DNA of 25,033 nucleotides from a bacterium (GCA_046759165.1 JBHIBS010000023.1:1-25033); one strand, 5' to 3'. Positions 1,158 to 22,908 are shown, counted from the first letter of the stretch. Notes: generated from the sequence alone by a model not told the origin. Program-made: numbers and translations.

Positions 1158-3782
1158 CTACATGTTCCTTTTGTATCTCTTCATTAATAGCGAATTGCTA
1201 ACTACAGAAACAGAGCTAAAAGACATGGCTGCGCCAGCAATAATAGGATTCAATAGAAACCCAGTAAACGGATAGAGCAACCCCGCTGCCACAGGAATGC
1301 CCACACTATTGTAGAAGAATGCCCAGAATAGATTCTGTCTTATCTTCTTCATTGTGTATCTTGATAAGTCCATAGACATTACCACATCTCTAAGATCGTC
1401 TTTAATGAGTACTATGTCCCCAGATTCAATGGCGACATCGGTGCCCGTGCCAATGGCAATACCAATGTCAGCCTGAGTAAGCGCAGGAGCATCGTTTATG
1501 CCATCACCAACCATGGCCACCTTCAAACCTTGCTGTTGAAGTTTCTTTATCTCGTTAGCTTTATCTTGTGGTAAAACCTCTGCTAAAACTTCCTTTATAC
1601 CCAATTGCCTGGCTATGGCTTCACCTGTCCTTCTGTTATCTCCTGTTATCATAACAACTTCTTTGCCAAATTCCTTGAGTGTCTTAATTGCCTGTTTTGC
1701 ATTTTCTTTTAAAGTATCAGCCACAGCCACTATTCCCATAACTGAATTGTCTACGGCGACAATCATCGCAGTTTTACCCTGTGTTTCTAAGTCCAAAAGA
1801 AACTTATCTACTTTTGACAAATCTATACTTCTCTCCCGCATCAATTTACTATTTCCTAATAGAATCATTCTATTCTGGTATTTCGCGCTAACCCCTCTTC
1901 CAGTTATAGAATCAAAAGCTTCTGGTTCAGGGATATCTATTCCTTTTGCTTTTGCCCCCTCAATTATTGCTTCCCCCAGGGGGTGCTCGGAATTCTTTTC
2001 TGCTATTGCCGCAAATCTCAACACATCGTTTTCACTCATCGTATCCAGCTTGATGACATCAGTTAATTCCGGCTTACCCTTAGTCAGAGTTCCGGTTTTG
2101 TCAAATATAATTGTATTTATATTACGAGCCAATTGAAGTGATTGAGCACTCCTAATCAAAATCCCATTCTGCGCCCCAATACCAGTTCCTACCATAACCG
2201 CTGTGGGCGTCGCTAAACCCAAAGCACAGGGACAGGCAATAATCAAGACAGCGATAGCGATAGTCAAGGCAAACACAAATCCCTGTCCAACCAGAAGCCA
2301 CATGGTAAAGGCAATTATTCCAATTAAAACTACTGCAGGAACAAAATAAGCAGAAATCTTATCTGCCAATTCTTGAATAGGGGCTTTGGAGCCCTGCGCT
2401 TCCTCAACAAGTCTTATGATCTGGGCTAAAGCTGTATCTTTGCCAACTTTTGTGGCTACAAACCTAAAAGAACCTGTCTTGTTAATTGTGGCGCCAATAA
2501 CTTCATTGCCTGGTGTCTTCTCCACCGGAATGGACTCGCCACTAATCATTGATTCATCTACACTGGAATGCCCATCAACTACTTTTCCATCTACAGGGAT
2601 TTTCTGTCCCGGCTTCATCAGAACAACATCACCAACAATGACTTCCTCTATTGGAATCTCTTTCTCCTGCTCATTCCTGATGACAATGGCAGTCTTGGCC
2701 TGCAACCCCAAAAGTTTCTTGATGGCTTCCGAAGTCTTTCCCTTGGCAATGGCTTCCAGCCACTTTCCCAAGAGGATGAACGCGATAAGAATCCCGGCTA
2801 CTTCATAATATAGATTTTCTATTCCGTATTTGGGACTACCCGACCATATCGCTATAGACACAAAAAGACTATAAACATATGCTGCACCCGTTCCCAGAGC
2901 CACTAAAGTATCCATATTGGCAGTTCTGGTTTTGATAACTGAACTAAAACCCTTAGTATAAAATTGGTAGCCTGCCATTATGATAGGAGTTGTAAGAAGA
3001 AATTGGATGAGAGCCATATTCCTTAGAATAGAATCCGAAAGCGACAAACCCAGGTGGGGTGCCATAGCAAAATATAGAAGTGGTATACCCAAACTTAACG
3101 AAATCCAAAACTTAATCTTCAGGCTTCTAATTTCTCTATGTCGTGCTTCTTTTTCGATATCGGGTGTAACTTCTTTCTCCTCAATTGGTGTATACCCTGC
3201 AGCTTTAATTGTTTCTTTTATTCTATCCTTAGTTAACAAAGAGGTATCAAATTGGATTTTTGCTCGCTCATTGACATAGAGTTCTTGCTTTGTAATTCCT
3301 TTAAGGCTATTTAATGCCCCTTTCACAGTGCTCAAACAATGGGGATTATCCATGCCAATAACTTTTAGGTTGAGCGTTGAGATTATCCCTCCCTCTCTTA
3401 TTGGCTTATATCCGGCCCTGGAAATAGCTTCTTCCATCTTCTCTCTTGTGACTTTGTTAGGGTCATACTCAATATGTGCCTTCTCAGAAACGAAATTTAC
3501 TTTCGCATCCGATACGCCATCAACCTTCTTTAAAGAATTTTCTATCGTAATCACGCAGGATGAACAATGCATGCCTGTAATCCCGATTGTCGTCTTTTCT
3601 TTTTTCTTTGAGGCAGCTTCAGTTTTTGATTCTGAAACTGGTTCCTCTTTCTCCACACCTAAAAATTTATCTCGACAAAGAGGACTACAGAAAAAATATT
3701 GTTTACCGTCTTTCTCTACCTTAATCGCTTTTTTCTCATCAACTTCCATTTTACAGATCGGGTCTATCGCCACCTTAATCAC
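1158..3782 (-). CDS. copA: Copper-translocating P1B-type ATPase with N-terminal YHS and two HMA domains
   Basis: DPIC...FCS YHS domain, GMHCSSC HMA, SGES, CPC, DKTGT phosphorylation site, [15 protein letters not shown] and M-x3-S Cu(I) motifs. Confidence 0.95.
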
Positions 3783-3791
3783 CTCATTCGC

Positions 3792-5246
3792 TTATACCAC
3801 TTCCTTAACTTTGCGCGTCCCCTTCTTTCTTACTCTTATATTCCTTGGTTTTGGATATTCACCAGTCCAGCAATAGAGACACAGCTTCTCCTTGGGGAGC
3901 CCAATGGCCTTGACCATGGCATCCACAGTCTGGTATCTAAGTGTGGTAACTTCTAAATCGTTAGCAATCCATTCCACCATCTTTTTGTATTCTTTAGAAT
4001 TATGGTCTACATATTTTGCCACATTCTCTAAATCTCTGCCTTCCAGGCTGCGAATGGCTCTTCGGGCAGCGAGTTCATGGATGCTCCGCGTGGAGAGATT
4101 AAACCTGCATGGAAACATCAAGGGCGGGCAGGCGGGCCTTATGTGAACCTCTCTGGCCCCGCTGTCCCACAACTTCTTTATGGTGAAGTTCCTAAGCTGA
4201 GTTCCCCTGACTATAGAGTCCTCGCATACTACAATCCTGTTGTCTTCAACTATCTCTCTGACAGGAATGAGCTTCATCTTGGCTATCAAATCTCGGGTCT
4301 CCTGCGAAGGAGGAGTATAGCTCCTCCCATATCCAGGCGTATACTTCACAAGAGGTCGCCTGTAAGGCTTCCCGGACTCCATGGCATATCCCACAGCGTG
4401 TGCGGTTCCTGAATCGGGAACCCCAGAGACTACATCTACTTCTATATCTCTGTCCCGTTTTGCCAGAAACCTTCCGCATCTCTCCCTCACTGTCTCCACA
4501 TTTATCCCCTCATAGCTTGAAGCGGGAAAGCCGGTATATATCCAGAGGAATGCGCAGATTTGATTCATATCCCCGCCTGGCTTCTTCTGCGCCAGGCCCT
4601 CCTCATTTATCAGAACTATCTCCCCGGGCTCGAAGTATTTCACTGCTTCGAACCCAATATTTGGGAACGCACTAGTCTCAGAAGTAACTGCCCAGGCATC
4701 CTGTCGCTTTCCAACTACGAGAGGGGTATATCCATACCTATCTCTGGCGGCATAGACTCCATCTTTGTTCAGCAATAAAAGTGAGCAGGAACCATCTATT
4801 GCATCGAACATCTTCTCTATACCCTCTATCAAATTGTTCCCCTGGCTGATCAACTTGGCTACGAGCTCAGTTACATTAACCACACCTTTGCTCACTTCAC
4901 TGAAGGATATTCCTTTTTCCAACAGCCCTCCCACTAATTCTTCGATATTTTCTAAGAGTCCATTGGTGACTATACAAAACGGACCGAACTTGGAGTTTAA
5001 ATAAATAGGCTGTTCATCAAAGGCGCTAATAACGCCAATACCCTTGTTGCCCTTCATACGCTTGAAATCTTGATAGAATTTTGACTTAAACTGATTCTGG
5101 CTTATGTCATGTATCTGGCGGGTGAAATCCTCTCCCAGCACTGCCATGCCCCCATATTCTGTCCCCAAATGCGAATGATAATCCGTTCCACAGAATAGAA
5201 TTTCTGCACAATCTCCCTTAGAAACTACTCCAAAAATCCCGCTCAT
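3792..5246 (-). CDS. purF: Amidophosphoribosyltransferase-like protein lacking the N-terminal catalytic Cys
   Basis: VPDSG, EDSIVRGT PRPP loop, four Fe-S-type Cys (ICAF, FPCRF, CLYC); N-terminus is MSGIFG instead of MCGIFG. Confidence 0.85.
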   Translation of the reverse strand: MSGIFGVVSKGDCAEILFCGTDYHSHLGTEYGGMAVLGEDFTRQIHDISQNQFKSKFYQDFKRMKGNKGIGVISAFDEQPIYLNSKFGPFCIVTNGLLENIEELVGGLLEKGISFSEVSKGVVNVTELVAKLISQGNNLIEGIEKMFDAIDGSCSLLLLNKDGVYAARDRYGYTPLVVGKRQDAWAVTSETSAFPNIGFEAVKYFEPGEIVLINEEGLAQKKPGGDMNQICAFLWIYTGFPASSYEGINVETVRERCGRFLAKRDRDIEVDVVSGVPDSGTAHAVGYAMESGKPYRRPLVKYTPGYGRSYTPPSQETRDLIAKMKLIPVREIVEDNRIVVCEDSIVRGTQLRNFTIKKLWDSGAREVHIRPACPPLMFPCRFNLSTRSIHELAARRAIRSLEGRDLENVAKYVDHNSKEYKKMVEWIANDLEVTTLRYQTVDAMVKAIGLPKEKLCLYCWTGEYPKPRNIRVRKKGTRKVKEVV

Positions 5247-5317
5247 CTTTTACCTCTGTTATATTTAGTTTCAAATTCTAAAACAATCAAAATCTGAAAT
5301 TTGTAATGTGTAATTTA

Positions 5318-8300
5318 CTATTTCACTTGTTTATGGTATTCCTGTAATGATTTCACAAAGGTCTTTGGTCTCTTAATCAAATTCTCGATTCCATTAACAG
5401 ATGCCTGTGCACCAGCAATAGTAGTTATGAGAGGTACACTATAAAGAATTGCATGGGATCTTATCTTTGCCTCATCCTCTCTGGTCACCTTGCCAGCAGG
5501 AGTGTTTATTATAAGATCTACCTTACCATCTTTTATTAAATCGATTATGTTAGGTCTCCCTTCGTGAAGTTTAGGCAAAGTTTCTACCTCTATGTCATTC
5601 CTCATAAGGGCGGCTGCTGTACCAGAAGTTGCCATAATTTTAAACCCAAGGTCAGTAAGTTTCTTGGCAATGAACATTATACTCCTCTTATCCTGGTTCT
5701 TCACACTTATAAATACATTCCCCTTTTTTGGCAACCTTTGTCCAGCAGCTATCTGGCTCTTCCCATAAGCTACACCAAATGTGGAATCTATTCCCATAAC
5801 CTCCCCCGTGGATTTCATCTCCGGCCCCAAGATTGCATCTACGCCTGGAAACCTTATGAAAGGAAATACAGACTCTTTTACTGCAACATGATCTATCTCC
5901 TTTTCCTTGGTAAATTCTAACTCTTGCAGGGTCTTTCCAAGCATTATCCTAGTTGATAGCTTTGCCAGAGGAACCCCTATTGCCTTGCTCACAAATGGAA
6001 TCGTTCTACTTGCCCTGGGATTTACCTCCAGGACATAGACCACATTATTCTTGATGGCGTACTGGATATTCAAAAGTCCCTTCACATTCAATTCCTTTGC
6101 CATAGCATAAGTATTTTTCTTTATAACTTCTATTATATCTTCACCTAAGGTATAGGGCGGAAGGACCATTGCACTATCACCAGAATGGATCCCTGCTTCT
6201 TCAATGTGCTCCATAACCCCACCTATCACGCACCTCTTGCCATCTGCTATTGCATCCACATCAACTTCTATAGCATCTTCTAAGAATTTGTCGATAAGAA
6301 TTGGATGTTCAGGAGATGCCTCTACTGCTTTTTTCATAAAATTGCTTAAGCCTTCCTCATCATAGACTATCTCCATTGCTCTACCACCCAGAACATAAGA
6401 AGGTCTTACCACCACTGGATATCCTATCCTGTTTGCAACCTTCTTTGCTCCTTCGAATGAGGTAGCTGTCCCGTTATCAGGCTGGATGAGTTTCAATTTC
6501 TTAAGCATCTGTTGAAATCTTTTTCTATCCTCTGCCCTGTCTATAGAATCAGGGCTTGTTCCTAAAATCTTCACTCCTGCTTTGGCCAATGGGACAGATA
6601 TATTTAGAGGAGTCTGGCCTCCAAATTGAACTATCACCCCGATGGGTTTTTCAATATCCACAATATTTAATATATCCTCAACTGTCAAAGGTTCAAAATA
6701 CAATTTGTCTGAAGTGTCATAATCTGTCGAAACAGTCTCTGGATTGCAATTTACCATAATGCTTTCAATGCCCTCTTCCTTTAAAGCATACGATGCATGA
6801 CAACAACAGTAATCAAACTCTATGCCCTGCCCGATTCTATTGGGTCCCCCTCCAAGGATAAGAACCTTCCTATTCCCGGATGGCTGGCTTTCATCCCTGG
6901 TCTCATATGTAGAATAGTAATATGGTCTCTCCGCTTTAAATTCTCCTCCGCAGGTATCTACCAATTTATAAACTCCTTTTATATTGCACCTTTTTCTATA
7001 GAATCTTACCTTTTTCTCCGTCGAATTTAGAAGATAGGCAAGCTGCATATCTGAGAAGCCGTACTTTTTCGCTTTCCTAAGCAACTCTGGTGGGATTTCA
7101 ATTTTATATTTTGCATTTTTACTTCTATATCTCTTTATCTTTTTTTCCAGTTCTATGATCTGTTTCATATTGTCTATAAACCACCTATCAATTTTTGATA
7201 ACTCATAAATCTCATCAACCGTTAGTCCAAGCTTGAGACCATATCTGATGAAAAATAGCCTCTCATCATTGGGAATTCTTATTTTTTCCTTTATTTCCTC
7301 AATCAAATCTTCTGACGTTGATCTTAATGCTCCATCCGTGATTCTGTCTTTTCCGTCTGAACCCAATCCAAATCTCCCTGTCTCAGTAGACCTTATTCCC
7401 TTCTGGAGGGCCTCCTTAAAGCTTCTACCAATAGACATTGCCTCACCAACTGCTTTCATAGATGTATTTATGACCCTTTGAACTTGAGGAAATTTTTCAA
7501 AAGTAAATCTACAGATTTTAAATACGCAGTAATCAACTGTAGGCTCAAAGAATGATGTTGTCTTTCCTGTAATCTGATTGAGAATCTCTGGAAGAGTTAA
7601 GCCAACAGCCAATTTTGTAGCAACCCTGGCAATGGGGAAACCGGTAGCTTTAGAAGCTAAAGCTGAACTTCTTGAAAGTCTTGGATTGACTTCGATAATC
7701 ACAATGTGTCCATTATCCGGGTTTTGGGCAAATTGAATATTCGCACCTCCTCCCGTTATGCCAATCTTTCTTATAATCTTTTTGGATAGATTCACAAACT
7801 GTGCGTATTCATCTCCAGTAACGCTCTGGGATGGTGCAACCACAATGCTATCACCAGTATGTACACCCATTGGGTCCACATTCTCCATAGAAGTAATCAT
7901 AATAACATTGTCAACGTAGTCCCTCATCACCTCATACTCTATCTCTTTCCACCCCAATACAGATTGTTCCACCAATACTTGTCCCACCGGGCTTATCTCA
8001 AGGCCCTTTATTAGAAACTCCTCCAATTCCTCTTTATTATAAGCAGTAGAACCACCGCTCCCACCCAAACAATACGCTGGCCTCAAAATCAACGGAAACC
8101 CTATCTCAAGGCCTATCCTCATGCCCTGTTCCAAATTTGTAGCAATTCCACTTTTGGGGACATCTATCCCTATTTCTTGCATTGCCTTCTTAAATAGCTC
8201 TCTATCTTCAGCCCTTGAAATAGCCCCAACATTGGCTCCTATAGACTCTACACCATACTTTTCCAGTACACCTTCTTTCATTAAAAAATAGGCCAGATTC

Positions 8301-8587
8301 AAGCCCGTCTGGCCGCCCAGTGTGGGCAGAATGGCATCGGGTCTCTCCTTCTTTATTATCTCCGTAACCGCTTCTACTGTGAGTGGCTCAATGTATGTCA
8401 CATCTGCCATACCAGGATCTGTCATAATAGTAGCTGGATTGCTATTTACAAGGATTGTAAAGTAACCTTCTTCTCTTAAAGCCTTACAGGCTTGAGAACC
8501 AGAATAGTCAAATTCACAGGCCTGGCCAATAACAATAGGGCCGGAGCCTATCATCAATATCTTATTTATATCTTTGCGCTTTGGCAT
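5318..8587 (-). CDS. carB: Carbamoyl-phosphate synthase large subunit
   Basis: 1089 aa, [17 protein letters not shown], two ATP-grasp halves (HTGDS/EVNPR and [14 protein letters not shown]), C-terminal MGS-like domain. Confidence 0.98.
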
Positions 8588-8609
8588 GCTGCATCCCCTT
8601 TTTCAATGA

Positions 8610-8648
8610 GCACATCACCCTACACCCAGTGTGCTGGGTGATAAGTGC
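8610..8648. repeat. carA-carB intergenic inverted repeat
   Basis: CACCCAG-tgtg-CTGGGTG (8623-8640) with an alternative arm ATCACCC (8614-8620) able to pair with GGGTGAT (8636-8642). Confidence 0.5.
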
Positions 8649-8652
8649 GGGG

Positions 8653-9741
8653 TCATTTGATTCCTGAAAATCTTCTAAATACTTCGTTTACCTCCTCAAA
8701 CCCAGGACTTACCGGATAGTACTGGGTGGAAATAAACCTTAAAGGGCCACTTTCCATCTCCTCAATTGAGTCATCATTAACATTTCGCAGGGTAATGTTA
8801 ATATCATTTCTACCCTTTATTGAGTTCTCATCCACAATAAATGAATGGTTCTGAACAGTGATATCCCCCTTATATGAAGAAGGTGACTTCACTGGATAGT
8901 TTACACCGTGATGACCTACTTTGAGTTTTCTTAGTCTGCCTCCTAAGGCAAGACAGATAATTTCATGTCCTAAGGAAATACCTAAGAGAGGAATTTTGCC
9001 CACGAGCCTCTTAACTAACTCCACAATTTTAGAAATTGCTTCATCTTCTTCTGGTCCACTGGAAATGATCAAGCCATCAGGATTCAATCCAAGAATCTTA
9101 TCTCTATTAGTATTATAGGGTAATAACGTAATATTGCATCCCAGACTCTTTAATTGTTTGAGAAAACTATTCAAGATCCCAAGGTCTAATATAACTATCT
9201 TTGGTCCTGAAGGATTACCTTTAATTTCTGTAGTCCTTTTTACAGAGATATTTCTTATAAAGTCCTTTCTCATGTCTTTTTTATAATTTTTTAACCTGTT
9301 AAGTAAGTGACTAATCTTTGCCTCCTTGCACTCGAGCGGCACTATGGTCGAAACTATTCCTAACATCTGTCCTCTATCTCGAATCTTGACAGCCAATGTC
9401 CTTGTATCGACCTCGCTTATAGCAACAAGGTGTTCCTTCTTAAGGAAATTGTTAAAACTGTCCTCTGCCTGCCAATTGGAATACATTTTACTTCCCTCTT
9501 CTATAATCAAGGCCTCTATCCAACATTTTTTGGAATCATAAAATTTTTTGGCTACACCGTAATTACCTATCAAGGGATAGGTGAAAACCAGGATTTTGCC
9601 CGCATTTGCCGGGTCGGTCATAATCTCCTGGTATCCAACAACCGCAGTATTCAAAACCACCTCTCCTATCCTTTCTCCGGCTACCCCTATTGGGACGCCC
9701 TCAAAGTAGCTACCATCCTCTAACACTAATATTCCTCTCAT
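8653..9741 (-). CDS. carA: Carbamoyl-phosphate synthase small subunit, glutaminase-dead variant
   Basis: GEVVLNT..GYQE..TDP, TYPLIGNYG, VDTRTL, GHHG.NYPV, QNH; nucleophile motif GISLGHE, C-terminal QYYPV. Start moved to ATG 9741 (MRGILVLEDG, GGGAG RBS); ORF track begins at 9765. Confidence 0.92.
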   Translation of the reverse strand: MRGILVLEDGSYFEGVPIGVAGERIGEVVLNTAVVGYQEIMTDPANAGKILVFTYPLIGNYGVAKKFYDSKKCWIEALIIEEGSKMYSNWQAEDSFNNFLKKEHLVAISEVDTRTLAVKIRDRGQMLGIVSTIVPLECKEAKISHLLNRLKNYKKDMRKDFIRNISVKRTTEIKGNPSGPKIVILDLGILNSFLKQLKSLGCNITLLPYNTNRDKILGLNPDGLIISSGPEEDEAISKIVELVKRLVGKIPLLGISLGHEIICLALGGRLRKLKVGHHGVNYPVKSPSSYKGDITVQNHSFIVDENSIKGRNDINITLRNVNDDSIEEMESGPLRFISTQYYPVSPGFEEVNEVFRRFSGIK

Positions 9742-9793
9742 AATCTTCTCCCATTGATATTCCATTCTTGCCCAACCAGCTACCCTATATTTT

Positions 9794-9822
9794 ATTATAC
9801 CATAATATTCAAATATATTTAA
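9794..9822 (-). promoter_or_regulatory. Extended -10 promoter for carA-carB-purF-copA
   Basis: Minus strand TG-G-TATAAT at 9802-9794; weak -35 (TTAAAT) 17 nt upstream. Confidence 0.55.
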
Positions 9823-10130
9823 GAGTTTTTATTCTATTATTTTTGCGGTCGATTAACATATGGGGTTGAACTTTCATGCCTGTTAAATAGGGCTCTTAGG
9901 TCAATAAGAAATCTTGTCGAATGAAGAATAGATTACAGAGAAACGGACCCTAAAGTTTACAGACTTCTGGTGCTATACAGAATAGAAAAGCAGCGCGCCA
10001 ACGCTCTTGCCCAAACAGCTAAGAAGCCTATTCGCCACAGGCTTGTGTTATAGATAGTCCAACCCAGAATTTGATAGATAATAGGATGTGTCTCTTTTTA
10101 AAAAATGGCGGGCTTTTCAGCAGTTGTGCC

Positions 10131-11003
10131 TCAGAAAGGCTCACTGAGCAAACCATATAGTTCCGGTCGGCGGTCTCTAAAGACGGGCGAGACGGCTCTC
10201 ATCTCAAGCAGGTGGTCATTACTAAATTCCGCAAAAAGAACTTCTTCTTCCCCCTCCTTCTCTGCATAGGCAAGAATCTCTCCGTCAGGTCCGGCTATGG
10301 CACTATGCCCATCGAAATCATGCCGACTATATTTGCCCACTGGATTGCATGCCATTGCGTAGACCCTGTTTGATATTGCATGCATCATCGAGAAGCATCG
10401 GAAGCGAGTGGGTATATAGGTCACTCTCTTGTGAGGAGAGGTTGGCTTTCCCCATGAATAATTGGAGCAAAGAATTTCCATGCCTTTCAAAGCCAATATT
10501 CGTGGTAGTTCGGGAAATAGGTTATCCCAGCACACGGTCATTCCGATGTTACCGATCTCCGTATGGTAAACTTCCAATGTATTACCTGGGTAGAAGTAGT
10601 GTTTTTCCTCATCAGGAATATGCAATTTGTGATGGATGCCCAGTATCTCTCCTCGAGGCCCGATCAACACTGATGAATTGTATATGGTGCCTGGTATCCG
10701 AGGATGAAGCTGAGCTAATCCCACCACAATGTGAGTTTGGTGTTTTTTAGCCAGCTTAGCGACAATATTGGTGGTATAGCCGGGAATCGGCTCTGCACAC
10801 TTCAGGAACTCCCGGCCGAAATCCTGGTCCATCGGCTGGACGTATCCCGTGTTGGCAAGTTCGGGAAAGAGTATCAGGTCTGCCGCCCGGTTATCAAAAA
10901 TATTCTCAATAAATTCCTTGATTTTAGAGGCGTTCTTCTTTGGCTGTAGACTGGCCACCTCCATTTGAACCAAGGATGTTTTAACTTTATCTTTCATTTC
11001 CAT
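10131..11003 (-). CDS. Carbon-nitrogen hydrolase (nitrilase superfamily)
   Basis: Glu-Lys-Cys triad motifs FPEL, HKLHIP, VCWD; C-terminal RDRRPELY. Confidence 0.9.
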   Translation of the reverse strand: MEMKDKVKTSLVQMEVASLQPKKNASKIKEFIENIFDNRAADLILFPELANTGYVQPMDQDFGREFLKCAEPIPGYTTNIVAKLAKKHQTHIVVGLAQLHPRIPGTIYNSSVLIGPRGEILGIHHKLHIPDEEKHYFYPGNTLEVYHTEIGNIGMTVCWDNLFPELPRILALKGMEILCSNYSWGKPTSPHKRVTYIPTRFRCFSMMHAISNRVYAMACNPVGKYSRHDFDGHSAIAGPDGEILAYAEKEGEEEVLFAEFSNDHLLEMRAVSPVFRDRRPELYGLLSEPF

Positions 11004-11010
11004 TACCTCT

Positions 11011-11919
11011 CTATTTCTGCTTGTGTTTGGCTAAATATCTGAAGGCACTAAGTGCCGCTTTAGCCCCTTCACCGGCTGCTACTATAATCTGTTTTTCAGC
11101 CACATCAGTAACATCACCTGCGGCAAAGATGGCCGGCATATTGGTCTCGTTGTGACAGTTTACCTTGATTTCACCCAGTTCATTCTTTTCTAACTGTTTA
11201 GCAAATTCAGAATTAGGAATAAGACCGATTTCTACAAAAACTCCTTGCACAGCCAGCGTTTCTTCCCTTTCTTGTCTTTTTATCTTAATTCCACTTACCA
11301 TCCTATCTCCAAGGACAGCGGTTACCCGTGTGCTGTTTAAGATAGAGACCTTTTTACTCTCACTGACTTTTCCCCTCATTATCGCATCTCCAGTGAGGGC
11401 TGAGGTGATATTGATAAGATAGATATGTTTGGCTATCTTTATCAATTGTAGCGCTGCATCCAAAGCAGAGTTCCCTCCACCAATAACTGCCACATCCTTT
11501 CCAGCAAATAAAGGACCATCGCAAGTAGCACAGTAAGTGAGGCCTCTATTTTTAAATCCTTTTTCCCCCGGCACACCAAGTTCCCTTGACCTCTTGCCAG
11601 AGGCAACTACCGCTGTTTTCGCTTCGTAGGTACCTTTGTCAGTCTTAACCCAGACTCCGTCGTCTTTTCTTCTGAGTTCTATTACTTCTTCATTCTCTCT
11701 TAACTCGATGCCATATTTTTGCATATGCTCCTCAAACTTACCTGCCAGCTCAGGGCCGGTGATGAACTGATAGCCAGTGTAATTCTCTATGTCTCCACTC
11801 AATGCCGCCTGCCCCCCGATATCTTTGGTAATAACTAAAAGGTTCATTTTCTTTCTGGCAGCGTAGACGCTGGCTGTTATACCTGCTGGTCCTGCCCCTA
11901 CAATAATTAAATCGAACAT
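11011..11919 (-). CDS. trxB: Thioredoxin-disulfide reductase (TrxB/AhpF C-terminal-like)
   Basis: GAGPAG FAD motif, CATC active site, GGGNSA NAD(P)H motif, FAAGD. Confidence 0.9.
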   Translation of the reverse strand: MFDLIIVGAGPAGITASVYAARKKMNLLVITKDIGGQAALSGDIENYTGYQFITGPELAGKFEEHMQKYGIELRENEEVIELRRKDDGVWVKTDKGTYEAKTAVVASGKRSRELGVPGEKGFKNRGLTYCATCDGPLFAGKDVAVIGGGNSALDAALQLIKIAKHIYLINITSALTGDAIMRGKVSESKKVSILNSTRVTAVLGDRMVSGIKIKRQEREETLAVQGVFVEIGLIPNSEFAKQLEKNELGEIKVNCHNETNMPAIFAAGDVTDVAEKQIIVAAGEGAKAALSAFRYLAKHKQK

Positions 11920-11941
11920 TTTCCTATTATCTCTAATGGGG

Positions 11942-12181
11942 TTATAACCCCAATGCCTTTCTTATCCTCTCTTTGTCAAAACCCACTATAATTTCGCCTT
12001 CAATATCTATTACAGGCACAGCCATTTGCGCCGATTTCTGAACCATCTCTTGGGCTTTTTCCCGGTCACTAGAGACATCGATATCCTCAAAATCAATCTT
12101 GTTGTCCCTTAGGAAATTCTTGGCCATCATGCAAAACGGGCAAGTGGGGGTACTGTAGACTATGACTTTTTTGTCCACCAT
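11942..12181 (-). CDS. Glutaredoxin-like protein (NrdH/YruB type)
   Basis: CPFC active site, VPVI cis-Pro motif, IVGFD; ATG 12181 preceded by GAGGTG. Confidence 0.9.
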   Translation of the reverse strand: MVDKKVIVYSTPTCPFCMMAKNFLRDNKIDFEDIDVSSDREKAQEMVQKSAQMAVPVIDIEGEIIVGFDKERIRKALGL

Positions 12182-12197
12182 AGTCACCTCTTTTAGA

Positions 12198-12674
12198 TTA
12201 CAGGGTCTCCTTTAAATCGAACAACTGTCTTAGATGGTTTTGCTCTTCTAAAATAAGCTGATTAACTATTTTGTGGTCATATTCTGGCACTACCTTCTTC
12301 ATCCCTTCATAGAAAAGGATCGAATCTTTCTCAAATCCTATACCGAGATCGATAGCTTCTTTATCGCTTCTTATTCTTTTGGCTATTTCCTCGCCTTTAT
12401 CCTTCTGGGTAAATACATAGGCCCTTGCCAGCGCATTCATATATGCAAAATATTCCCCGGGATACGACTCTGGCGGTACATATTTGTGCACCGAATCTAA
12501 TATCTTTTGAAAAACAGTTATGTGTTTTTCTTCTTCGCCTGCCAAATATTTGAACGTGTCTTTAGCTTTTTGATTTTTTGATTGCTTAGCCAACGTGTTG
12601 TAGAAATCTCTACCATTCTTTTCAATTTGAATTCCCAATTCCACTATTTCGCTTCCTGCAAATATGTTTACCAT
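12198..12674 (-). CDS. Ferritin-like (rubrerythrin-family) diiron protein without rubredoxin domain
   Basis: Paired E...EEKH and E...EEQNH diiron motifs; AAGGAGG RBS. Confidence 0.85.
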   Translation of the reverse strand: MVNIFAGSEIVELGIQIEKNGRDFYNTLAKQSKNQKAKDTFKYLAGEEEKHITVFQKILDSVHKYVPPESYPGEYFAYMNALARAYVFTQKDKGEEIAKRIRSDKEAIDLGIGFEKDSILFYEGMKKVVPEYDHKIVNQLILEEQNHLRQLFDLKETL

Positions 12675-12706
12675 CTCTTCCCTCCTTCAACAACCCAACA
12701 CTAATT

Positions 12707-12847
12707 TTATTGAAAAGACTTGTGAGTAAACCCAAGAGTGTGATCAATGAAATGCCCTGTGCTTCTGGCTCCTTCCAGAACCTTATCCAGTAGAATATCT
12801 GTATTGCCACCTATTCGCGGGCTACCATTTATCCCTAATACTTTCAC
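12707..12847 (-). pseudogene. Truncated flavodoxin-family (iron-sulfur flavoprotein/FMN reductase) gene
   Basis: Hand translation from GTG 12847: MKVLGINGSPRIGGNTDILLDKVLEGARSTG then unrelated residues and stop after 46 aa; GSPRxxGNT is the FMN-phosphate loop of this family. Confidence 0.8.
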
Positions 12848-12850
12848 TTC

Positions 12851-12976
12851 TTAACCTTCTATTTTTTCCATGGGTTGCCCGCAACAAACAAGTTCACCAC
12901 CGCCCACTTTTGTTACAGTGACTTCATTACCACATACATTACATCTATACTTTTCCCCTACTTTTTCTACGGCCAT
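12851..12976 (-). CDS. Desulforedoxin (stand-alone FeS4 domain)
   Basis: Not in ORF track. [41 protein letters not shown] (41 aa), CxxC...CC motif, GAGGAG RBS. Confidence 0.92.
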
Positions 12977-13033
12977 ATGATATCTCCTCTCATAATCTCA
13001 ATTATTATATTTTTGATTATATCCCCCATCACT

Positions 13034-13678
13034 CTAGTGTATTAAATTCTTCAAATTCATTATATCGTCTATAATAAAATCTGGCTTTGCCTTGATTATA
13101 TCCTCCTTCTTGCCTATTCCATAAGTAACGCCACATGTAATTATACCAGCCCTCTTACCGGCTACTATATCTAAATCCATATCACCGACTATTATAGCTT
13201 CTTCTTTATTTGCATTAAGCCTGTGCATTGACATATCTAAAGGACATGAAGAAGGTTTCATACAACCTATGTCATCTCCTCCTACAATGTCTTCGAAATA
13301 ATCATATATACCTAACGTCTTTAGTGTAAGCAGAGCAAATTCATAATTTCTATTAGTTACAATCACCTTTTTCTTACCCTTAAAATATTCCAAAATTTCC
13401 TTCACGTTTGGGTAGAGAACAGAATTATCTGTGGAATGTTTTTTATAGTATTCTTCAAACGCGGATAGGGCTTTCTTAAGAAGAACTTCCTCCTTGTTAC
13501 CTAACGATTTTCTTATCAAGCCCTCTACACCTGTGCCTATATAAGAACTTATTTCTGATATACTTTTCTCTTTAAGCCCAATTTTTTTCAAAGTAAAATT
13601 AACAGCATTGGCTATGTCATCTCTTGAGTCAACCAGTGTGCCATCTAAATCAAAAATAATAAGGTCTATGTATTTCAT
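13034..13678 (-). CDS. HAD-family phosphatase (Gph/PpaX-like)
   Basis: FDLDGTLVDS motif I, VTN motif II, KP motif III, GDxxxD motif IV. Confidence 0.9.
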   Translation of the reverse strand: MKYIDLIIFDLDGTLVDSRDDIANAVNFTLKKIGLKEKSISEISSYIGTGVEGLIRKSLGNKEEVLLKKALSAFEEYYKKHSTDNSVLYPNVKEILEYFKGKKKVIVTNRNYEFALLTLKTLGIYDYFEDIVGGDDIGCMKPSSCPLDMSMHRLNANKEEAIIVGDMDLDIVAGKRAGIITCGVTYGIGKKEDIIKAKPDFIIDDIMNLKNLIH

Positions 13679-13684
13679 CCGTTA

Positions 13685-14398
13685 TCAATATCCTACAAAA
13701 TTTTCTATTTTGATTTTATCTTTTTGAATTCTTAATTTACTTTTTAGAATATTTATTAAACTCTCTACCATCCCTGGAGGTCCACAGATATAAAAGGTTC
13801 TTTCTATATAATCCGGTATCTCTTCTTTTATCACGGTATCATCTATATAGCCCGTTCTGCCTTTCCAAGTTTTTCTATCTATATCTGGGGAGGTTAAGGT
13901 GTAGACTATCCGCAGATTCTTATTGACTGACTGCATATTATCTAAGTCCTGTCTGAATATAATATCTTCTTCTCTGTTATTGCCATACAGTAACACCATG
14001 TCTGGTGGCAACATCGAGTCTGTGGCAAACTTGCATATGCTCCTTATGGGAGTTATGCCAATGCCCCCTGAAAGAAAGGCAATTTTTTCATACTCACCTT
14101 CAAATGTGAAAGACCCATACGGCATCTTCAATTTTGCCCAATCGCCAAGTTTTAATCCATTTAAGGCCTTTGAAAATTCACTTTCAGTAATTCTTTTGGT
14201 AAATTCTACATATCCTTTCTCAGTGGGTGAGTTTGAAAAAGAAAAATGTTTTGTCCTCTCTGTCCCGTCAATCTTTATTGTAACAAAAAAGAATTGCCCC
14301 GGTTTAAAATCCACATCTCCTTTTATGCTAAACCGGAAGCTCTTGACGTTATGGGTTCTTTGTACTATATCTATTACCTCTGTTTCAAATTCAATCAT
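13685..14398 (-). CDS. FAD/NAD(P)H-dependent oxidoreductase, FNR-like fold
   Basis: FKPGQF, HFSFSNSP, GGIGITP, YICGPPGM, terminal ENF. Confidence 0.88.
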   Translation of the reverse strand: MIEFETEVIDIVQRTHNVKSFRFSIKGDVDFKPGQFFFVTIKIDGTERTKHFSFSNSPTEKGYVEFTKRITESEFSKALNGLKLGDWAKLKMPYGSFTFEGEYEKIAFLSGGIGITPIRSICKFATDSMLPPDMVLLYGNNREEDIIFRQDLDNMQSVNKNLRIVYTLTSPDIDRKTWKGRTGYIDDTVIKEEIPDYIERTFYICGPPGMVESLINILKSKLRIQKDKIKIENFVGY

Positions 14399-14403
14399 TA
14401 TCT

Positions 14404-14913
14404 CTACTCGGTTAGTATTATATGGTCTGACTCTATCTCCGTTAAGGCTTTAAAGGACTCCTTTATTTCTTTCTCCGGGACTCGATTTCTTGCTTCTGTG
14501 TAGAATTTTACTGCCCTTTTTTCTCTCCTGTTGGCCTCTTCTATATTCGCTCGATCAGAATCAACTGCTTTATCCAATCCTACTTTTGAATCTGACTTCT
14601 CTATGTTTAGATGTTTGCATATCGCTGAGGCGTGTTCTCTCTCCACCTTTGATAAACCTTTAAACATACTTGAAACATAGACGTCTTTGCTTTTCTCAAA
14701 TATGGCTTTATAAAAATTTGTATTATCTATCTCCAGTTCCAACGCCTTCCTCAAATTCCTCTTACTTATGTCTGACAAAGATTCACTCTGTATCAATTTC
14801 CATTCTTTTGCTAAGACAAAATAATTCTCATGAGCGCCACAAAAAGGACAACTCTTGGGCTTCTCTTTTCCTATATAGACCTCTCCACAAATCCGGCAGC
14901 GATATACTTTCAT
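14404..14913 (-). CDS. Reverse-rubrerythrin-like protein (rubredoxin domain + ferritin-like domain)
   Basis: CRICG...CPFCG followed by E..EREH and E..ESDH; ATG 14913 has AAGGAG RBS 8 nt upstream. Confidence 0.85.
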   Translation of the reverse strand: MKVYRCRICGEVYIGKEKPKSCPFCGAHENYFVLAKEWKLIQSESLSDISKRNLRKALELEIDNTNFYKAIFEKSKDVYVSSMFKGLSKVEREHASAICKHLNIEKSDSKVGLDKAVDSDRANIEEANRREKRAVKFYTEARNRVPEKEIKESFKALTEIESDHIILTE

Positions 14914-14996
14914 ATCGTTCACTCCTTTCTAATATTTGTCATCTGTCCATTCGACAAGTTGCATATAAAGCTGACAAGTTATGTCTTCATTTCAAC

Positions 14997-15575
14997 TCAG
15001 TAATTTTCGCAAAGAAGCTCGTAGAATCCTTGGGGATGGGCACACGCTGGACATTCTTCGGGTGCTTCTTTTCCCTCATGGACATACCCACAATTCCGAC
15101 ATTTCCATTTAACCACCGTATCCTTTTTGAATACCTTACCCTCTTTTACATTCTTAAGCAACTTTCTATATCGTATTTCATGCTGTTCTTCTACTTCTGC
15201 TATTTCCTTAAATTGACGGGCTGTCTCTTCAAAGCCTTCCTGGCGCGCTACTTCTTCTGCCTCTTTGTAAAGTTTTGTCCATTCAAGGTTCTCTCCGGCT
15301 GCAGCTGCTTTCAGATTTGCTGCTGTGTCTTCTATCACGCCAGCTGGATAGGAGGCTGTAATTTCTACATCTCCGCCTTCTAAGAGTATAAAAAACCTCT
15401 TGGCGTGCTCTTTTTCATTATCAGCAGTCTCTAAAAATATTGCCGCTATCTGCTCATAGCCCGCCTTTCTTGCCACACTTGCAAAATAAGTATAGCGATT
15501 TCTTGCCTGCGATTCTCCGGCAAAAGATGCCAACAGATTCTTTTCCGTTTTGGTTCCTTTTATAGACTTTCCCAT
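14997..15575 (-). CDS. rbr: Rubrerythrin
   Basis: AGESQARNRY, EKEH, EEQHE diiron motifs and C-terminal CRNCG...CPAC. Confidence 0.96.
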   Translation of the reverse strand: MGKSIKGTKTEKNLLASFAGESQARNRYTYFASVARKAGYEQIAAIFLETADNEKEHAKRFFILLEGGDVEITASYPAGVIEDTAANLKAAAAGENLEWTKLYKEAEEVARQEGFEETARQFKEIAEVEEQHEIRYRKLLKNVKEGKVFKKDTVVKWKCRNCGYVHEGKEAPEECPACAHPQGFYELLCENY

Positions 15576-15604
15576 GATTCAACCTCCTTCCAGGAGACTT
15601 AGAC

Positions 15605-16195
15605 TTAGGAAAATGGTAACTTCTCAAAAGTCATTTTTTCAGCACCGCGACTGACCATTTCTTCTATAGCCTCTTCAGAATCTTTCGGCTTTATATTAAC
15701 GCCTTTAATAGCATCTATTAATAATTTAACTTTAAAGCCAAATTTTAAAGCATCCAAAACTGACGATTTAACGCAATAATCCGTAGCCAGACCGCCAACG
15801 AACGTTTCGTTTACTCCGAGAGTCTTCAATAGTTTGAAAAATTCAGTTCCATTGGAATCAACGGCTTGAAAAGCTGAATAGCTGTCCTTATCAGGATCCA
15901 TCCCCTTGGATAAGATTATTATCCCCTTAGGCAATTCTAAATCTGGATGGAACCTGGCTCCCCTGGTATTCTGTATACAGTGCTTTGGCCAGGGACCACC
16001 GAACTGTTTAAAGTGCTTGGTCTCCTTGGGATGCCAATCTCTTGAGACAAAAATTGGCAACTTTTTCCTCAAGAAAATCTTTATATATTTATTCAGCACG
16101 GAGATTATTCTATCGCCTTCTGGTACAGCCAGGGCCCCACCTGGACAGAAATCGTTCTGCACATCTACTATCAAGAGTGCTTTTTCTTGTTTCAT
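15605..16195 (-). CDS. pncA: Nicotinamidase/pyrazinamidase
   Basis: VDVQNDF, DWHP, WPKHC, SKG, GLATDYCV; start placed at ATG 16195 (GAGGAG RBS). Confidence 0.92.
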   Translation of the reverse strand: MKQEKALLIVDVQNDFCPGGALAVPEGDRIISVLNKYIKIFLRKKLPIFVSRDWHPKETKHFKQFGGPWPKHCIQNTRGARFHPDLELPKGIIILSKGMDPDKDSYSAFQAVDSNGTEFFKLLKTLGVNETFVGGLATDYCVKSSVLDALKFGFKVKLLIDAIKGVNIKPKDSEEAIEEMVSRGAEKMTFEKLPFS

Positions 16196-16233
16196 GGCTC
16201 CTCGCCAATGCATTAAAGAACTAATTGGAGTAT

Positions 16234-16569
16234 TTATCCCCACTTACCCTTCCCTATATGGACTTCTATCTCAGCCTTAATGAATTGACTCAATAGTTTT
16301 GCCTCATCCCTTGCCCTCGTAAAAATAACTGAACACCCCGGGTCTAAATTATCCTGGATACCTGCCTCAGCAATAGAATGCATCTGGTCTAATACAGCTG
16401 CCAATCCCATATGGAGTTGATTTGTGCATCTTGCCCTATCAACAAGTTTTGCTTTATCATCTGTTAATCTTACAAACTTATCCTTTGTTGCGCCACAGCG
16501 AGGACATTTATCCGGCGCATTTTCACCGTCGAAGACGTAATTACATACACCACACTTAAACTTCATCAT
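16234..16569 (-). CDS. Rubredoxin-like domain protein with helical C-terminal domain
   Basis: CGVC...CPRC N-terminus; DNLDPGC and [14 protein letters not shown]-terminus; AGGAGG RBS. Confidence 0.8.
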
Positions 16570-16628
16570 TTTTCGCCTCCTGTACCATTAAATCCTCAAA
16601 ACATCTCCATACTTTAGGTTCTATCTGT

Positions 16629-16787
16629 TCAAACCCTTTCAAACATATCCTTCCCCACACCACATTCAGGACAGACCCAACTGTCAGGCAAATCCTCAAA
16701 GGCTGTGCCAGGGTTTATCCCATTATCTGGATCGCCAATTTGGGGGTCATAGATATACCCGCAGACCGTGCAACGATATTTTGCCAT
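16629..16787 (-). CDS. Rubredoxin
   Basis: Not in ORF track. [52 protein letters not shown] (52 aa). Confidence 0.97.
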
Positions 16788-16806
16788 ACTCTAAATTTTT
16801 GCTTTG

Positions 16807-17991
16807 CTATAGTTTTTTTACAAAATCTCTTCCATATTCATAGCACTGTTTGGTTTCATTTTCATCCGGAACATATCTAATAGCAAGGGATGACTGAACA
16901 ATTTCTATCCCTGCCTCCTTTAGGATATTTTCAATGCTCTTTACTGCTCCTCCCGCCCAGCCATATGAGCCAAATACACAAGCAACTCTATTCTTGGGTC
17001 TCAAGCCTTTTAGGAATCCTAAAAATCCAGCAATTGCAGGAAGCATATCATTATCATGGGTTGAGGAACCAATAATATAACCTTTACTATCGAGCATCTC
17101 TTTGATTACCTCGGTGCGCTCGGACAAGGCTATATCGAAGAGTTTTAGCTCAACTTGAGAATCGATTATCCCTTCAGCTATCTTTCTTGCCATCTTCTCG
17201 GTCGCGCCCCACATCGTCTCATAGACGACCACAACTTTTGGTTTTGTTTCGTTCTTCGCCCAGGATAGATATGCGTTTATTATTCTTTCAGGGTCTTTAC
17301 GCCAGATAATCCCATGACTGGGGGCAATCATCATCAGGGGAATATTTAACTTTTGAATCTCTTCGATCTTTTTCAAAACCAAGGAGCTGAACGGCCAAAG
17401 AATATTTCCATAATACTTTGCTGCCTCATCCATGAGCACAGATTCATCAACCTCGCCGTCAAACCTTTGTGAAGTTGCATAATGCTGGCCAAAGGCATCG
17501 TTCGGCAAAAGGATTTGGTCTTCAATTAGATAACTGAACATACTATCTGGCCAGTGAAGCATTGGGGCCTCAATAAATGTTAGAGTTCTCTTGCCTAATT
17601 TTAATTTGTCGCCTGTCTTTACTACTTGGAAATCCCAGTTGCCATAGTAATGTTTATACAGTCCCTCTTTACATTTTTCAGTGCCAAAAACTTTTGCCTT
17701 TGGGGAGAGTTTAAGTATTTCTGGAAGCGCTCCAGAGTGGTCTATTTCTATGTGGTTGGCAATAATATAGTTTATTTTTTCGGGTGGGATAATCTGGTGT
17801 ATATTCTCAATCATCTCCTCTGCATACCGCCCATAGACAGTGTCTACTAGAGCTATCTTATCATCCAAAATCAGATAGGCATTATAGGTAGTCCCTCTCC
17901 TTGTCTCATAGGTGTGGCCATGGAAGTTTCTCACATTCCAATCAATGACGCCTACCCAATAAATATCCGGAAGAATTTTTGCACTAGACAT
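16807..17991 (-). CDS. fprA: Flavodiiron protein (class A O2/NO reductase)
   Basis: HIEIDH, HWPD, NDAFG, PSHG diiron ligands and flavodoxin domain TMWGAT / FGSYGW. Confidence 0.95.
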   Translation of the reverse strand: MSSAKILPDIYWVGVIDWNVRNFHGHTYETRRGTTYNAYLILDDKIALVDTVYGRYAEEMIENIHQIIPPEKINYIIANHIEIDHSGALPEILKLSPKAKVFGTEKCKEGLYKHYYGNWDFQVVKTGDKLKLGKRTLTFIEAPMLHWPDSMFSYLIEDQILLPNDAFGQHYATSQRFDGEVDESVLMDEAAKYYGNILWPFSSLVLKKIEEIQKLNIPLMMIAPSHGIIWRKDPERIINAYLSWAKNETKPKVVVVYETMWGATEKMARKIAEGIIDSQVELKLFDIALSERTEVIKEMLDSKGYIIGSSTHDNDMLPAIAGFLGFLKGLRPKNRVACVFGSYGWAGGAVKSIENILKEAGIEIVQSSLAIRYVPDENETKQCYEYGRDFVKKL

Positions 17992-18049
17992 TGCATCTCT
18001 ATCCTTTCTAAATGCTTCTCTTTTTTTAATAATACTTTCCTTAAATTTT

Positions 18050-18526
18050 TTATTTTAACTTTTGAGCAATCCCGGTTACTCTCTTACCTAATTCTTTAGC
18101 AATCTTCAAGTCGGTTTCTGTTGGTGGTTGGTCTGCTAAGTGCCCCACTACAACTGTAGGCCCGTAAGGTGTTCCTCCTTTTTTGGTTTCTATCGCTTCT
18201 TTTACACTGTAAGGAATGCCTACAATTATTGCTCCATGATGGATTAAGGTAAACATCATAGAAATAAGGGTTGTTTCCTGCCCTCCGTGTAAGGATCCAG
18301 TGCAGCAGAATACGCCTGGGGGCTTGTTGACAAGAGTTCCTTTCTGCATCTCTTTTGCTTTCTTTATTCTCTCATTAGAATCAATAATACTTTGGTGGAG
18401 TAATTCCGGAACTGTATGTAAGATGGCTTCGCCTCCTTCTTCTTCGATACCCCGACAGACTCCCTTTGCCATCAAAAAAGTATTTCCAAGCATGCTTGTA
18501 AATAAAACCATAACTTTGGGCTTCAC
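18050..18526 (-). pseudogene. wrbA: WrbA-type NAD(P)H:quinone oxidoreductase with in-frame internal deletion
   Basis: SMLGNT, VPEL, HGGQETT, GGTPYG motifs present; central segment with G-T/S-P-T-R-F-G is absent (EMQK joins GTLVNK); 158 aa. Confidence 0.75.
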
Positions 18527-18582
18527 AACCTCTATCTCCTTTCCTTTATCTTACCGTCTATTGACGGGCATTGAAACTTATT

Positions 18583-21104: not shown

Positions 21105-21126
21105 TACTAATTTCTCTCCAAATTTT

Positions 21127-22083: not shown

Positions 22084-22159
22084 TTCTCACTTCTTCTTCA
22101 TCCTATAAAGAAATCTATATACGTTGTCAAAGGTGAGACCAATCCGGAAAATAAGAATA

Positions 22160-22678: not shown

Positions 22679-22852
22679 CCTGCCTTCTCCTTTATCGATA
22701 AATTTTGCATGCTCCTTCAAGAATGAGAACAACAGAACAATCAAATATCCTCAGCGGAAATAACCAGTGCCTTACTTACTTTGATCTTTTTCACCAAAGA
22801 CAGTTACTCTTTTTAAAGCAGCTCTTTCCACATTCTTTTTAATGTTCTGGTC

Positions 22853-22902
22853 CCAGACCAAGGGGTTCTGATTTGGCTTCTGTTTTTTCCCGGTAGGAAT
22901 TA
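22853..22902 (-). pseudogene. Degenerate ldh fragment
   Basis: 42/51 nt identical (one gap, hand alignment) to ldh 21804-21854. Confidence 0.7.
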
Positions 22903-22908
22903 TTTGAA

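Follow-up and report, generated by a model that had tools for sequence, protein, structure and literature searches.

The DNA analysed here, a stretch of 25,033 nucleotides from a bacterium (GCA_046759165.1, JBHIBS010000023.1:1-25033; hereafter the window), carries on its minus strand three consecutive genes related to carA, carB and purF, which we denote carA', carB' and purF'. The first two are related to the genes for the small and large subunits of carbamoyl phosphate synthetase (CPS), and the subject of this report is CarA', a small subunit in which the residues for glutamine hydrolysis have been lost. The genes and domains of the locus are as follows.

8653-9741, minus strand: carA', a carA paralogue without the glutaminase triad, 362 residues from the Met codon at 9741 (open reading frame, domains and alignment)
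9352-9729, minus strand: CPSase small-chain domain, N-terminal in CarA' (PF00988, E 5.8e-45, residues 13-138 of the 370-residue frame)
8713-9192, minus strand: class-I glutamine amidotransferase (GATase)-like domain of CarA' with a remodelled former glutamine site (PF00117, E 7.9e-30, residues 192-351)
5318-8587, minus strand: carB', a full-length large subunit of 1089 residues with all domains intact (NF003671, 1627 bits)
3792-5246, minus strand: purF', a PurF paralogue (profile match and alignment to Bacillus subtilis PurF)

The gaps between the genes are short, with 65 nucleotides between carA' and carB' and 71 between carB' and purF', and carA' and carB' adjoin in all 14 loci examined (7 + 3 + 3 and the window). 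The frame of carA' stays open to an upstream ATG at 9765 (open reading frame 8653-9765, 370 residues); the start at 9741 proposed by the first-pass annotation is likely the true one, being shared with the homologues and preceded by an extended -10 box and by a ribosome-binding site that is conserved. The small-chain domain is the CarB-docking domain in E. coli. CarA' could be aligned end to end with E. coli CarA, and its top match in the PDB was the engineered C269S mutant of that protein (1c30_B, E 1.4e-56). It also passes TIGR01368, the NCBI equivalog model for the 'glutamine-hydrolyzing' small subunit, with 337.7 bits against a cut-off of 307.35. An AlphaFold2 model of CarA', made from a 26-sequence alignment, was poor (mean predicted local distance difference test score, pLDDT, 63.2; predicted template modelling score, pTM, 0.63).

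Replacement of the glutaminase site and changes in step in CarB'

Residues are numbered as in E. coli CarA, with the sequence taken from the K-12 record. CarA' was compared with its 120 closest homologues, the best 120 of 1594 proteins from a word-indexed search (E<=1e-3), which are 62-100% identical to it, and with 76 canonical CarAs. The public labels of the 120, where named, are Omnitrophica/Omnitrophota, Ratteibacteria or 'bacterium', and the proteins are called 'glutamine-hydrolyzing'. The altered sites in the window are listed with their state in the homologues.

8974-8976, minus strand: Ser codon TCC at the position of the nucleophile Cys269 (120 homologues: Ser 107, Ala 8, Gly 3, Gln 1, Thr 1)
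8710-8718, minus strand: Tyr-Pro-Val for His353-Pro-Glu355-Ala, with His replaced by Tyr and Glu deleted (Tyr in 112/120, deletion in 120/120)
9043-9051, minus strand: Glu-Glu-Asp for Gly243-Asp244-Pro245, in the glutamine-site loop (Glu243 in 120/120, Asp245 in 119/120)
8902-8904, minus strand: Val at tunnel position Gly293 (Val or Leu in 108/120)
8695-8700, minus strand: Phe-Glu for Pro360-His361, beside the kept Ser357-Pro358-Gly359 (alignment)

The first-pass annotation had picked out four altered motifs by eye and had concluded that the catalytic apparatus of CarA was replaced as a whole, and alignment to E. coli CarA agrees on both counts. GICLGHQ has become GISLGHE, QGHPEASPG has become QYYPVSPG (one residue shorter), SNGPGDP has become SSGPEED and TDPSY has become TDPAN, while the triad Cys269-His353-Glu355 and the glutamine-site residues are all replaced or deleted. 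The individual changes are S47A, Y48N, G243E, D244E and P245D in the N-terminal part and site loop, where G241 is kept, and C269S, Q273E, G293V, H295Y, G313S, H353Y, deletion of E355, P360F and H361E in the rest; the Tyr353 codon, TAT, lies at 8716-8718. Ser47, Gly243, Gln273 and Gly313, which are glutamine-site residues in the E. coli structures, are Ala, Glu, Glu and Ser in the CarA' of the window.

Cys269, His353 and Glu355 are each found in 0/120 of the closest homologues. The canonical CarAs have S47, Y48, G243, P245, C269 and H353 in 76/76, Q273, E355 and P360 in 75/76 and Gly313 in 73/76. At position 293 they hold Gly (36), Ala (28), Ser (6) or Val (3; counts for 73 of the 76), and in human CPS1 the equivalent residue, Gln318, is described in passages of PMC4655335 as blocking the ancestral tunnel. 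The replacement residues of CarA' are themselves fixed (Tyr295 and Ser313 118/120 each, Asn48 117/120, Val36 119/120), so that the mean conservation of 12 replaced or tunnel positions is 0.94 versus 0.77 over all 362 columns. Tunnel residues retained in the family are N311 (120/120), S357 (115/120), P358 (116/120) and G359 (115/120).

Selection was examined through the ratio of nonsynonymous to synonymous substitution (dN/dS) in a codon alignment begun at Met9 of the 370-residue frame. Against six close relatives (dS 0.33-0.78) carA' gave values of 0.13-0.25 overall, with 0.12-0.28 for the N-terminal half and 0.14-0.25 for the GATase-like half (6/6 comparisons); for comparison, carB' gave 0.05-0.09 and three neighbouring genes 0.07-0.12. 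CarA' is constrained, about twofold less tightly than the neighbouring genes, and the dead domain is as constrained as the docking domain.

A sequencing error, against which the first reading of the DNA had argued, is contradicted both by these ratios and by the 120 homologues, which come from many samples and share the changes. Contigs of two runs, possibly the source itself, are identical in sequence, and contigs X4 and X5 from two other studies (90-99% alike) cover 8687-9036, with the Ser and Tyr codons unchanged among the differences listed (23 differences being unlisted). Since no homologue has the triad, the replacement residues are conserved and selection is purifying, the changes are not the product of chance, error or decay. 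CarA' has the properties by which pseudoenzymes are recognised, namely lost catalytic residues, a fold and purifying selection that are kept, and a paralogue of the active type, here on contig C3 of the same genome.

In parallel, the N-halves of eight CarB' proteins encoded beside CarA' were compared with those of 38 full-length and 12 half-size CarBs encoded beside canonical CarAs. Thirteen positions conserved in the canonical N-halves were consistently different in CarB', and the codons of two altered residues in the window are given below.

7892-7894, minus strand: ACT, Thr at the ammonia-tunnel gate position Cys232 of CarB' (alignment)
7793-7795, minus strand: GTG, Val at position Arg265 of CarB' (alignment)

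Thr stands for Cys232 in 8/8 CarB', this residue being Cys in 38/38 full-length and 12/12 half-size canonical CarBs; likewise, Val stands for Arg265 in 8/8, with Arg in 36/38 and 12/12, respectively. Further changes in CarB' are D333P, P360C, A155G, V304L and A534G. In three additional pairs with a more divergent CarA' (46-60% identical), the CarA' signature recurs along with all seven of these CarB' changes, bringing the count to 11/11 primed pairs versus 0/50 canonical pairs with the tunnel changes. Cys232 is part of the triangular gate A314-A251-C232 at the entry of the ammonia tunnel to the carboxyphosphate site (passages of PMC8674909 and PMC4655335). The carboxyphosphate-site residues that were checked (E217, T244, E299, N301 and R306) are unchanged in 8/8 CarB'. 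Kim and Raushel reportedly perforated the tunnel wall in 2004 at R265 of the large subunit and at P360 and H361 of the small subunit, and all three positions are changed in CarA'-CarB'. The two subunits have co-evolved, with interface and gate residues changed in step on both.

Canonical and primed genes in related genomes

The distribution of the two types was followed in 12 genomes of the phylum. CarA' is present in 9/12 (G000, which is the genome of the window, G002 and G005-G011) and canonical CarA in 7/12 (G000-G005 and G011), with both in four genomes, only CarA' in five (G006-G010, 83-96% complete) and only canonical CarA in three. Because pyrB and argF score over cut-off in 11/12 genomes and carbamate kinase was found in 0/12, CarA'-CarB' has to be the source of carbamoyl phosphate in the five CarA'-only genomes, if the assemblies are representative. 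Glutamine chemistry as such has not been lost, as glutamine synthetase is present in 12/12 genomes and 8/12, G008 and G009 among them, have a GuaA GATase of canonical type above cut-off, and an absence of glutamine from the cell was rejected as an explanation on the same evidence. Amt occurs in 3/12 genomes (G000, G002 and G011), each time beside an extra glnA and always together with both systems.

CarA' is a paralogue and not the cell's only CarA, since a canonical carA lies on contig C3 of the window's genome (L034, 5543-9816, and L004). Its product, 38% identical to CarA', has the motifs GICLGHQ, FHPEASPG, NGPGDP and TDPSY. On C3 the next gene is a carB of 554 residues, which stops precisely at the end of the oligomerisation domain, and guaA comes after it; a canonical purF, amt and the extra glnA are also on this contig. 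A half-size carB directly after a canonical carA recurs in loci labelled Omnitrophota and Planctomycetota.

A separate CarB C-half was found nowhere in the assembly of the window's genome (92% complete). A CarB'-type C-half and no other is present in 10/11 genomes with the half-size protein (CarB.N). It lies inside CarB' in G000, G002, G005, G012, G014 and G016, is adjacent in G015 (L119, 1840-3433), reaches a contig edge in G003 and is free-standing in G001 (L115, 7299-8876, 525 residues, between a permease gene and the pyruvate kinase gene) and in G013 (L118, 2030-3739). As the C-half of G015 is spread over two frames, it may contain a frameshift or be broken. In G004 (91% complete) carA-carB.N was seen with no C-half.

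A tree built from the C-halves (53 rows, quick search) places the free-standing ones among those of CarB': L118 pairs with L122, to which it is 89% identical (Shimodaira-Hasegawa-like approximate likelihood ratio test (SH-aLRT) value 99), and L115 shares 84% identity with the C-half of the window. The CarB' C-half groups among Omnitrophota-type sequences. In the corresponding tree of N-halves (60 rows) those of CarB' make up a single clade (SH-aLRT 100) with a long stem (0.52), which the tree does not place firmly (support 9); the clade of resident CarB.N proteins (SH-aLRT 97) is not its sister.

Other arrangements were also seen. Two full-length carB-like open reading frames stand in tandem after one carA in L040 (8193.., 11641..) and L056 (8163.., 11437..), the second copies forming a clade of their own in the N-half tree (SH-aLRT 100, stem 0.78). 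G011 is alone in its genus in having a canonical carA with a full-length carB (1076 residues; L028, contig C7, 50000-62000) beside carA'-carB'; this CarB falls outside the half-size clade, among the full-length CarBs of Omnitrophota, and could be a replacement or an acquisition.

The third gene of the locus shows a second loss at a glutaminase site. PurF' matches the PurF family below cut-off (221.5 bits vs 350). Alignment with B. subtilis PurF (1ao0) puts Ser (residue 2; AGC, 5241-5243) in the place of the N-terminal nucleophile Cys1. Compared with five canonical PurFs, PurF' is also without the 'HVRYSTTGS' segment and has Thr for the Asp of 'MDSE', features that correspond to Arg73 and Asp127 of the glutamine site. 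Among 121 members of the PurF' family (78-100% identical), 112 begin Met-Ser-Gly, 2 begin Met-Asn-Gly and 7 fall outside the pattern, with Cys in none. The near-invariant Ser that follows Met might itself serve as N-terminal nucleophile, in which case the site would not be dead. The family is very conserved, widespread and annotated as amidophosphoribosyltransferase.

Canonical purF is over cut-off in exactly the seven genomes that have canonical carA, on one contig with it in five of them, and PurF' is present in 8/9 CarA' genomes, the ninth having CarA' on a 4.7-kb contig. As the genomes are close kin, the co-occurrence does not amount to a statistical test, but its pattern is one of two modules, one set for glutamine and the other for ammonia. 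Together, the Cys-less PurF in the same operon and the co-variation across genomes suggest a coordinated switch from glutamine to ammonia in ammonia-rich anaerobic niches.

Proposed function and rival explanations

Bacterial CPS is taught as a glutamine-hydrolysing enzyme, and textbooks describe direct use of ammonia for the CPS of the animal urea cycle, not for bacteria. Full-text literature searches returned no paper on a triad-less bacterial CarA or on a bacterial ammonia-specific two-subunit CPS.

We consider that CarA'-CarB' is probably a functional CPS that depends on ammonia and has a pseudo-glutaminase as its small subunit, and so a bacterial analogue, in two subunits, of animal CPS I. 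With no nucleophile, no general base and no glutamine-binding residues, CarA' should be unable to hydrolyse glutamine, and nitrogen would therefore reach the carboxyphosphate site of CarB' as free ammonia. CarB' would need CarA' as a docking and conformational partner, for which reason CarA' would have been kept, and CarA' is likely to provide the entry for ammonia as well. What was once the glutamine pocket has been rebuilt as a conserved acidic/aromatic site (Glu243, Glu/Asp244, Asp245, Glu273, Tyr295, Tyr353 and Ser313), and ammonia may enter through this pocket or through the altered 360/361-265 interface. The use of free ammonia, and the pocket as an ammonia/ammonium port, are what we infer from these features. 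A CPS I-like ammonia enzyme predicts that CarA' can be the only CarA of a genome with aspartate and ornithine transcarbamoylases (ATCase and OTCase) and without carbamate kinase, as it is in the five genomes described above. In human CPS1, according to passages of PMC4655335, the nucleophile position is likewise Ser (Ser294) and the CPS works on ammonia.

Known systems offer partial parallels. CarA'-CarB' shares with E. coli CarA-CarB (PDB 1JDB/1BXR; C269S mutant 1C30) the carA-carB arrangement, the domain order and the downstream tunnel residues, and CarB' is 53% identical to its counterpart; the E. coli enzyme has the triad, the glutamine-binding residues, C232 and R265, whereas the primed enzyme is without all of these. 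Animal CPS I (human CPS1, PDB 5DOU/5DOT) resembles it, according to PMC4655335, in the Ser at the nucleophile position, the bulkier residue at the Gly293 position (Gln318; Val/Leu in CarA') and the inactive GATase-like domain that is kept. However, CPS I is one fused polypeptide that retains His and Glu and depends on N-acetylglutamate, whereas CarA' and CarB' are separate and His and Glu are lost. Since the subunits are separate and CarA' scores higher against E. coli CarA (195 bits) than against human CPS1 (138 bits), CarA' resembles CPS I by analogy rather than by descent, and its loss of the site is independent.

The split CPS of Aquifex aeolicus (GLN + CPS.A + CPS.B; Ahuja et al. 2001, according to the review PMC6022934) is matched by carA with a half-size carB.N and by the separate C-half of G001, G013 and G015. 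Unlike Aquifex, the genome of the window has its only C-half as a fused part of CarB', where it follows another N-half, a divergent one whose partner is the dead glutaminase. The pseudo-dihydroorotase of Pseudomonas aeruginosa ATCase is, according to PMC7053772, likewise an inactive paralogue kept because its active partner needs it; it differs in fold and in the step concerned, and there the requirement was shown by experiment, whereas for CarA' it is predicted.

The first-pass annotation had proposed that CarA is kept as a structural, regulatory or ammonia-access subunit, in a bacterial parallel to CPS I. Its retention as a non-glutaminase subunit is upheld by purifying selection, the intact pairing with CarB and the five CarA'-only genomes; CarA' may act as a scaffold, a regulator or an ammonia port, and of the CPS I parallel only the analogy remains.

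Several points weigh against an ammonia-dependent CPS. A canonical CarA is present in the window's own genome, so the primed enzyme need not be the main source of carbamoyl phosphate there. The five CarA'-only genomes are incomplete metagenome-assembled genomes, so that a canonical copy could have been missed, and no recognisable Amt ammonium transporter was found in any of them. G293V/L and C232T add bulk and might thus narrow the tunnel rather than open it. Moreover, the conservation of the pocket exceeds what a simple scaffold would require, hinting at some additional function.

The distribution of the C-half could be read in another way, in which CarA' with the CarB' N-half and canonical CarA with CarB.N are alternative front ends on the CarB' C-half and CarA' is mainly a cap or regulator. 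We regard this as unlikely. The glutamine front end on C3 would then use a carbamate-phosphorylating and allosteric C-half that exists only inside CarB', and the reading is in keeping with the single C-half type of 10/11 CarB.N genomes, the free-standing C-halves nested among those of CarB', and an N-half on a long, loosely placed stem joined to a C-half of Omnitrophota type. The fusion of N' to C should, however, occupy the surface that a free CarB.N would need, and the CarB' N-half keeps its catalytic residues. Furthermore, the primed enzyme must work alone in the five genomes that have CarA'-CarB' without canonical CarA or CarB.N, and G004 shows carA-carB.N only. Isolated halves of the Aquifex CPS catalyse both partial reactions and a minimal CPS has been reported from Methanobrevibacter (passages of PMC6022934), so CarB.N may need no C-half at all.

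The near-invariance of the replaced residues (0.94 vs 0.77) would also suit a new ligand site, with the pocket serving as an allosteric sensor, or with Glu243 mimicking the glutamyl group and locking CarB' in its active state, and with no ammonia passing through. In the E. coli C269S enzyme, binding of glutamine to the mutant subunit reportedly stimulates the ATPase of the large one. We think such a site quite improbable, as no ligand can be inferred and the kept downstream tunnel residues, with a gate altered in step, fit transport better than sensing. That Ser269 might act as the nucleophile on another amide, with ammonia still delivered via the tunnel, is very unlikely: Ser is the commonest residue at 269 (107/120) and an amidase-like C-N hydrolase is encoded upstream in the window and in 3/4 family-level loci with upstream sequence, but position 269 is Ala, Gly, Gln or Thr in 13/120, His353 and Glu355 are gone in 120/120, and the hydrolase gene is missing from L021 and from 6/6 loci outside the family (flanks short) and is set apart from carA' by a small open reading frame (in relatives), a terminator-like hairpin and its own -10 box. 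A decaying pseudogene, or an error of assembly or sequencing, is scarcely credible; the loss of catalytic residues speaks for it and nothing further, against an intact frame, dN/dS of 0.13-0.25, changes common to 120 homologues and concordant contigs.

A wider scheme, which we put forward as doubtful, would be a modular CPS in which one C-half back end (inside CarB' or free-standing) serves interchangeable glutamine and ammonia front ends, the latter with its old glutamine pocket turned into a dedicated port for ammonium capture, and lineages keep both or lose either; with PurF' this would make up an 'ammonia module' for nucleotide and arginine precursors that is able to replace the glutamine set. 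If CarA'-CarB' does use ammonia, the 'glutamine-hydrolyzing' annotations and the metabolic models built on them are wrong on the nitrogen donor for a large conserved family, and bacteria have arrived independently at the CPS I solution, of which the animal enzyme has been the one described case. The pair would also offer a natural experiment on tunnels that open to solvent, with changes of the kind reportedly engineered in E. coli.

Other Cys-less CarAs, upstream region and flanking genes

CarAs without Cys269 were also found more widely. An exhaustive profile search gave 12577 CarA-like representatives at E<=0.001, and in 152 rows (best 150 and three references) 67 were without Cys at 269, two of these being fragments; after removal of 16 fragments, fusions or gapped rows the count was 61/136. 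A FastTree phylogeny of the 136 rows, a sample (among P0121-P0269) biased towards the query, had 14 changes of state for Cys269, of which at least six are forced by well-supported branches. The Cys-less representatives show several unrelated-looking motif types (GIGLGHQ, GISLG, GIALG and others), and one of ten Cys-less cluster representatives is labelled Planctomycetota. Among 80 genome loci, five were without Cys269, four from the CarA' family and one from Clostridioides difficile (L103, 8001-9044). The latter CarA has Gly at 269 and Ile-Pro-Glu-Tyr for His353-Pro-Glu-Ala, is encoded between pyrF and carB, and passes the 'glutamine-hydrolyzing' equivalog model with 424 bits.

Upstream of carA' in the window lies a candidate promoter element.

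9794-9802, minus strand: extended -10-like box TGGTATAAT upstream of carA' (consensus match; conserved in 4/5 aligned relatives)

The carA'-carB'-purF' unit probably has its own promoter at TGGTATAAT, judging from this conservation and match. Promoter-like sites in 3500-10400 as a whole were not above chance (21 found vs 16.1 +/- 3.9 expected). Further upstream, at 10131-11003 on the minus strand, is the gene for the C-N hydrolase, which resembles N-carbamoylputrescine amidase (TIGR03381, scoring 151.8 bits where the cut-off is as high as 410) and adjoins carA' only within family-level relatives. In relatives an open reading frame for a small hydrophobic membrane protein (about 130 residues) lies between the two; in the window (9742-10130) it is deleted apart from its 3' end. 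As the terminator-like hairpin and the -10 box of its own also set the hydrolase gene apart, the carA' unit appears not to be co-transcribed with it. A role for the hydrolase as a general replacement source of ammonia was rejected, the gene being absent from L021 and the six loci outside the family and belonging to a separate transcription unit.

An Rfam scan of the whole window returned no family at gathering score. Beyond the hydrolase gene, the minus strand of 11011-23298 is densely packed with genes against oxidative stress, as is typical of strict anaerobes. This region encodes thioredoxin reductase, a glutaredoxin-like protein, four rubrerythrin/rubredoxin-like proteins, desulfoferrodoxin, DJ-1/PfpI and a flavodiiron-type protein (ODP + flavodoxin), together with 2-oxoacid:ferredoxin oxidoreductase and malate/lactate dehydrogenase genes.

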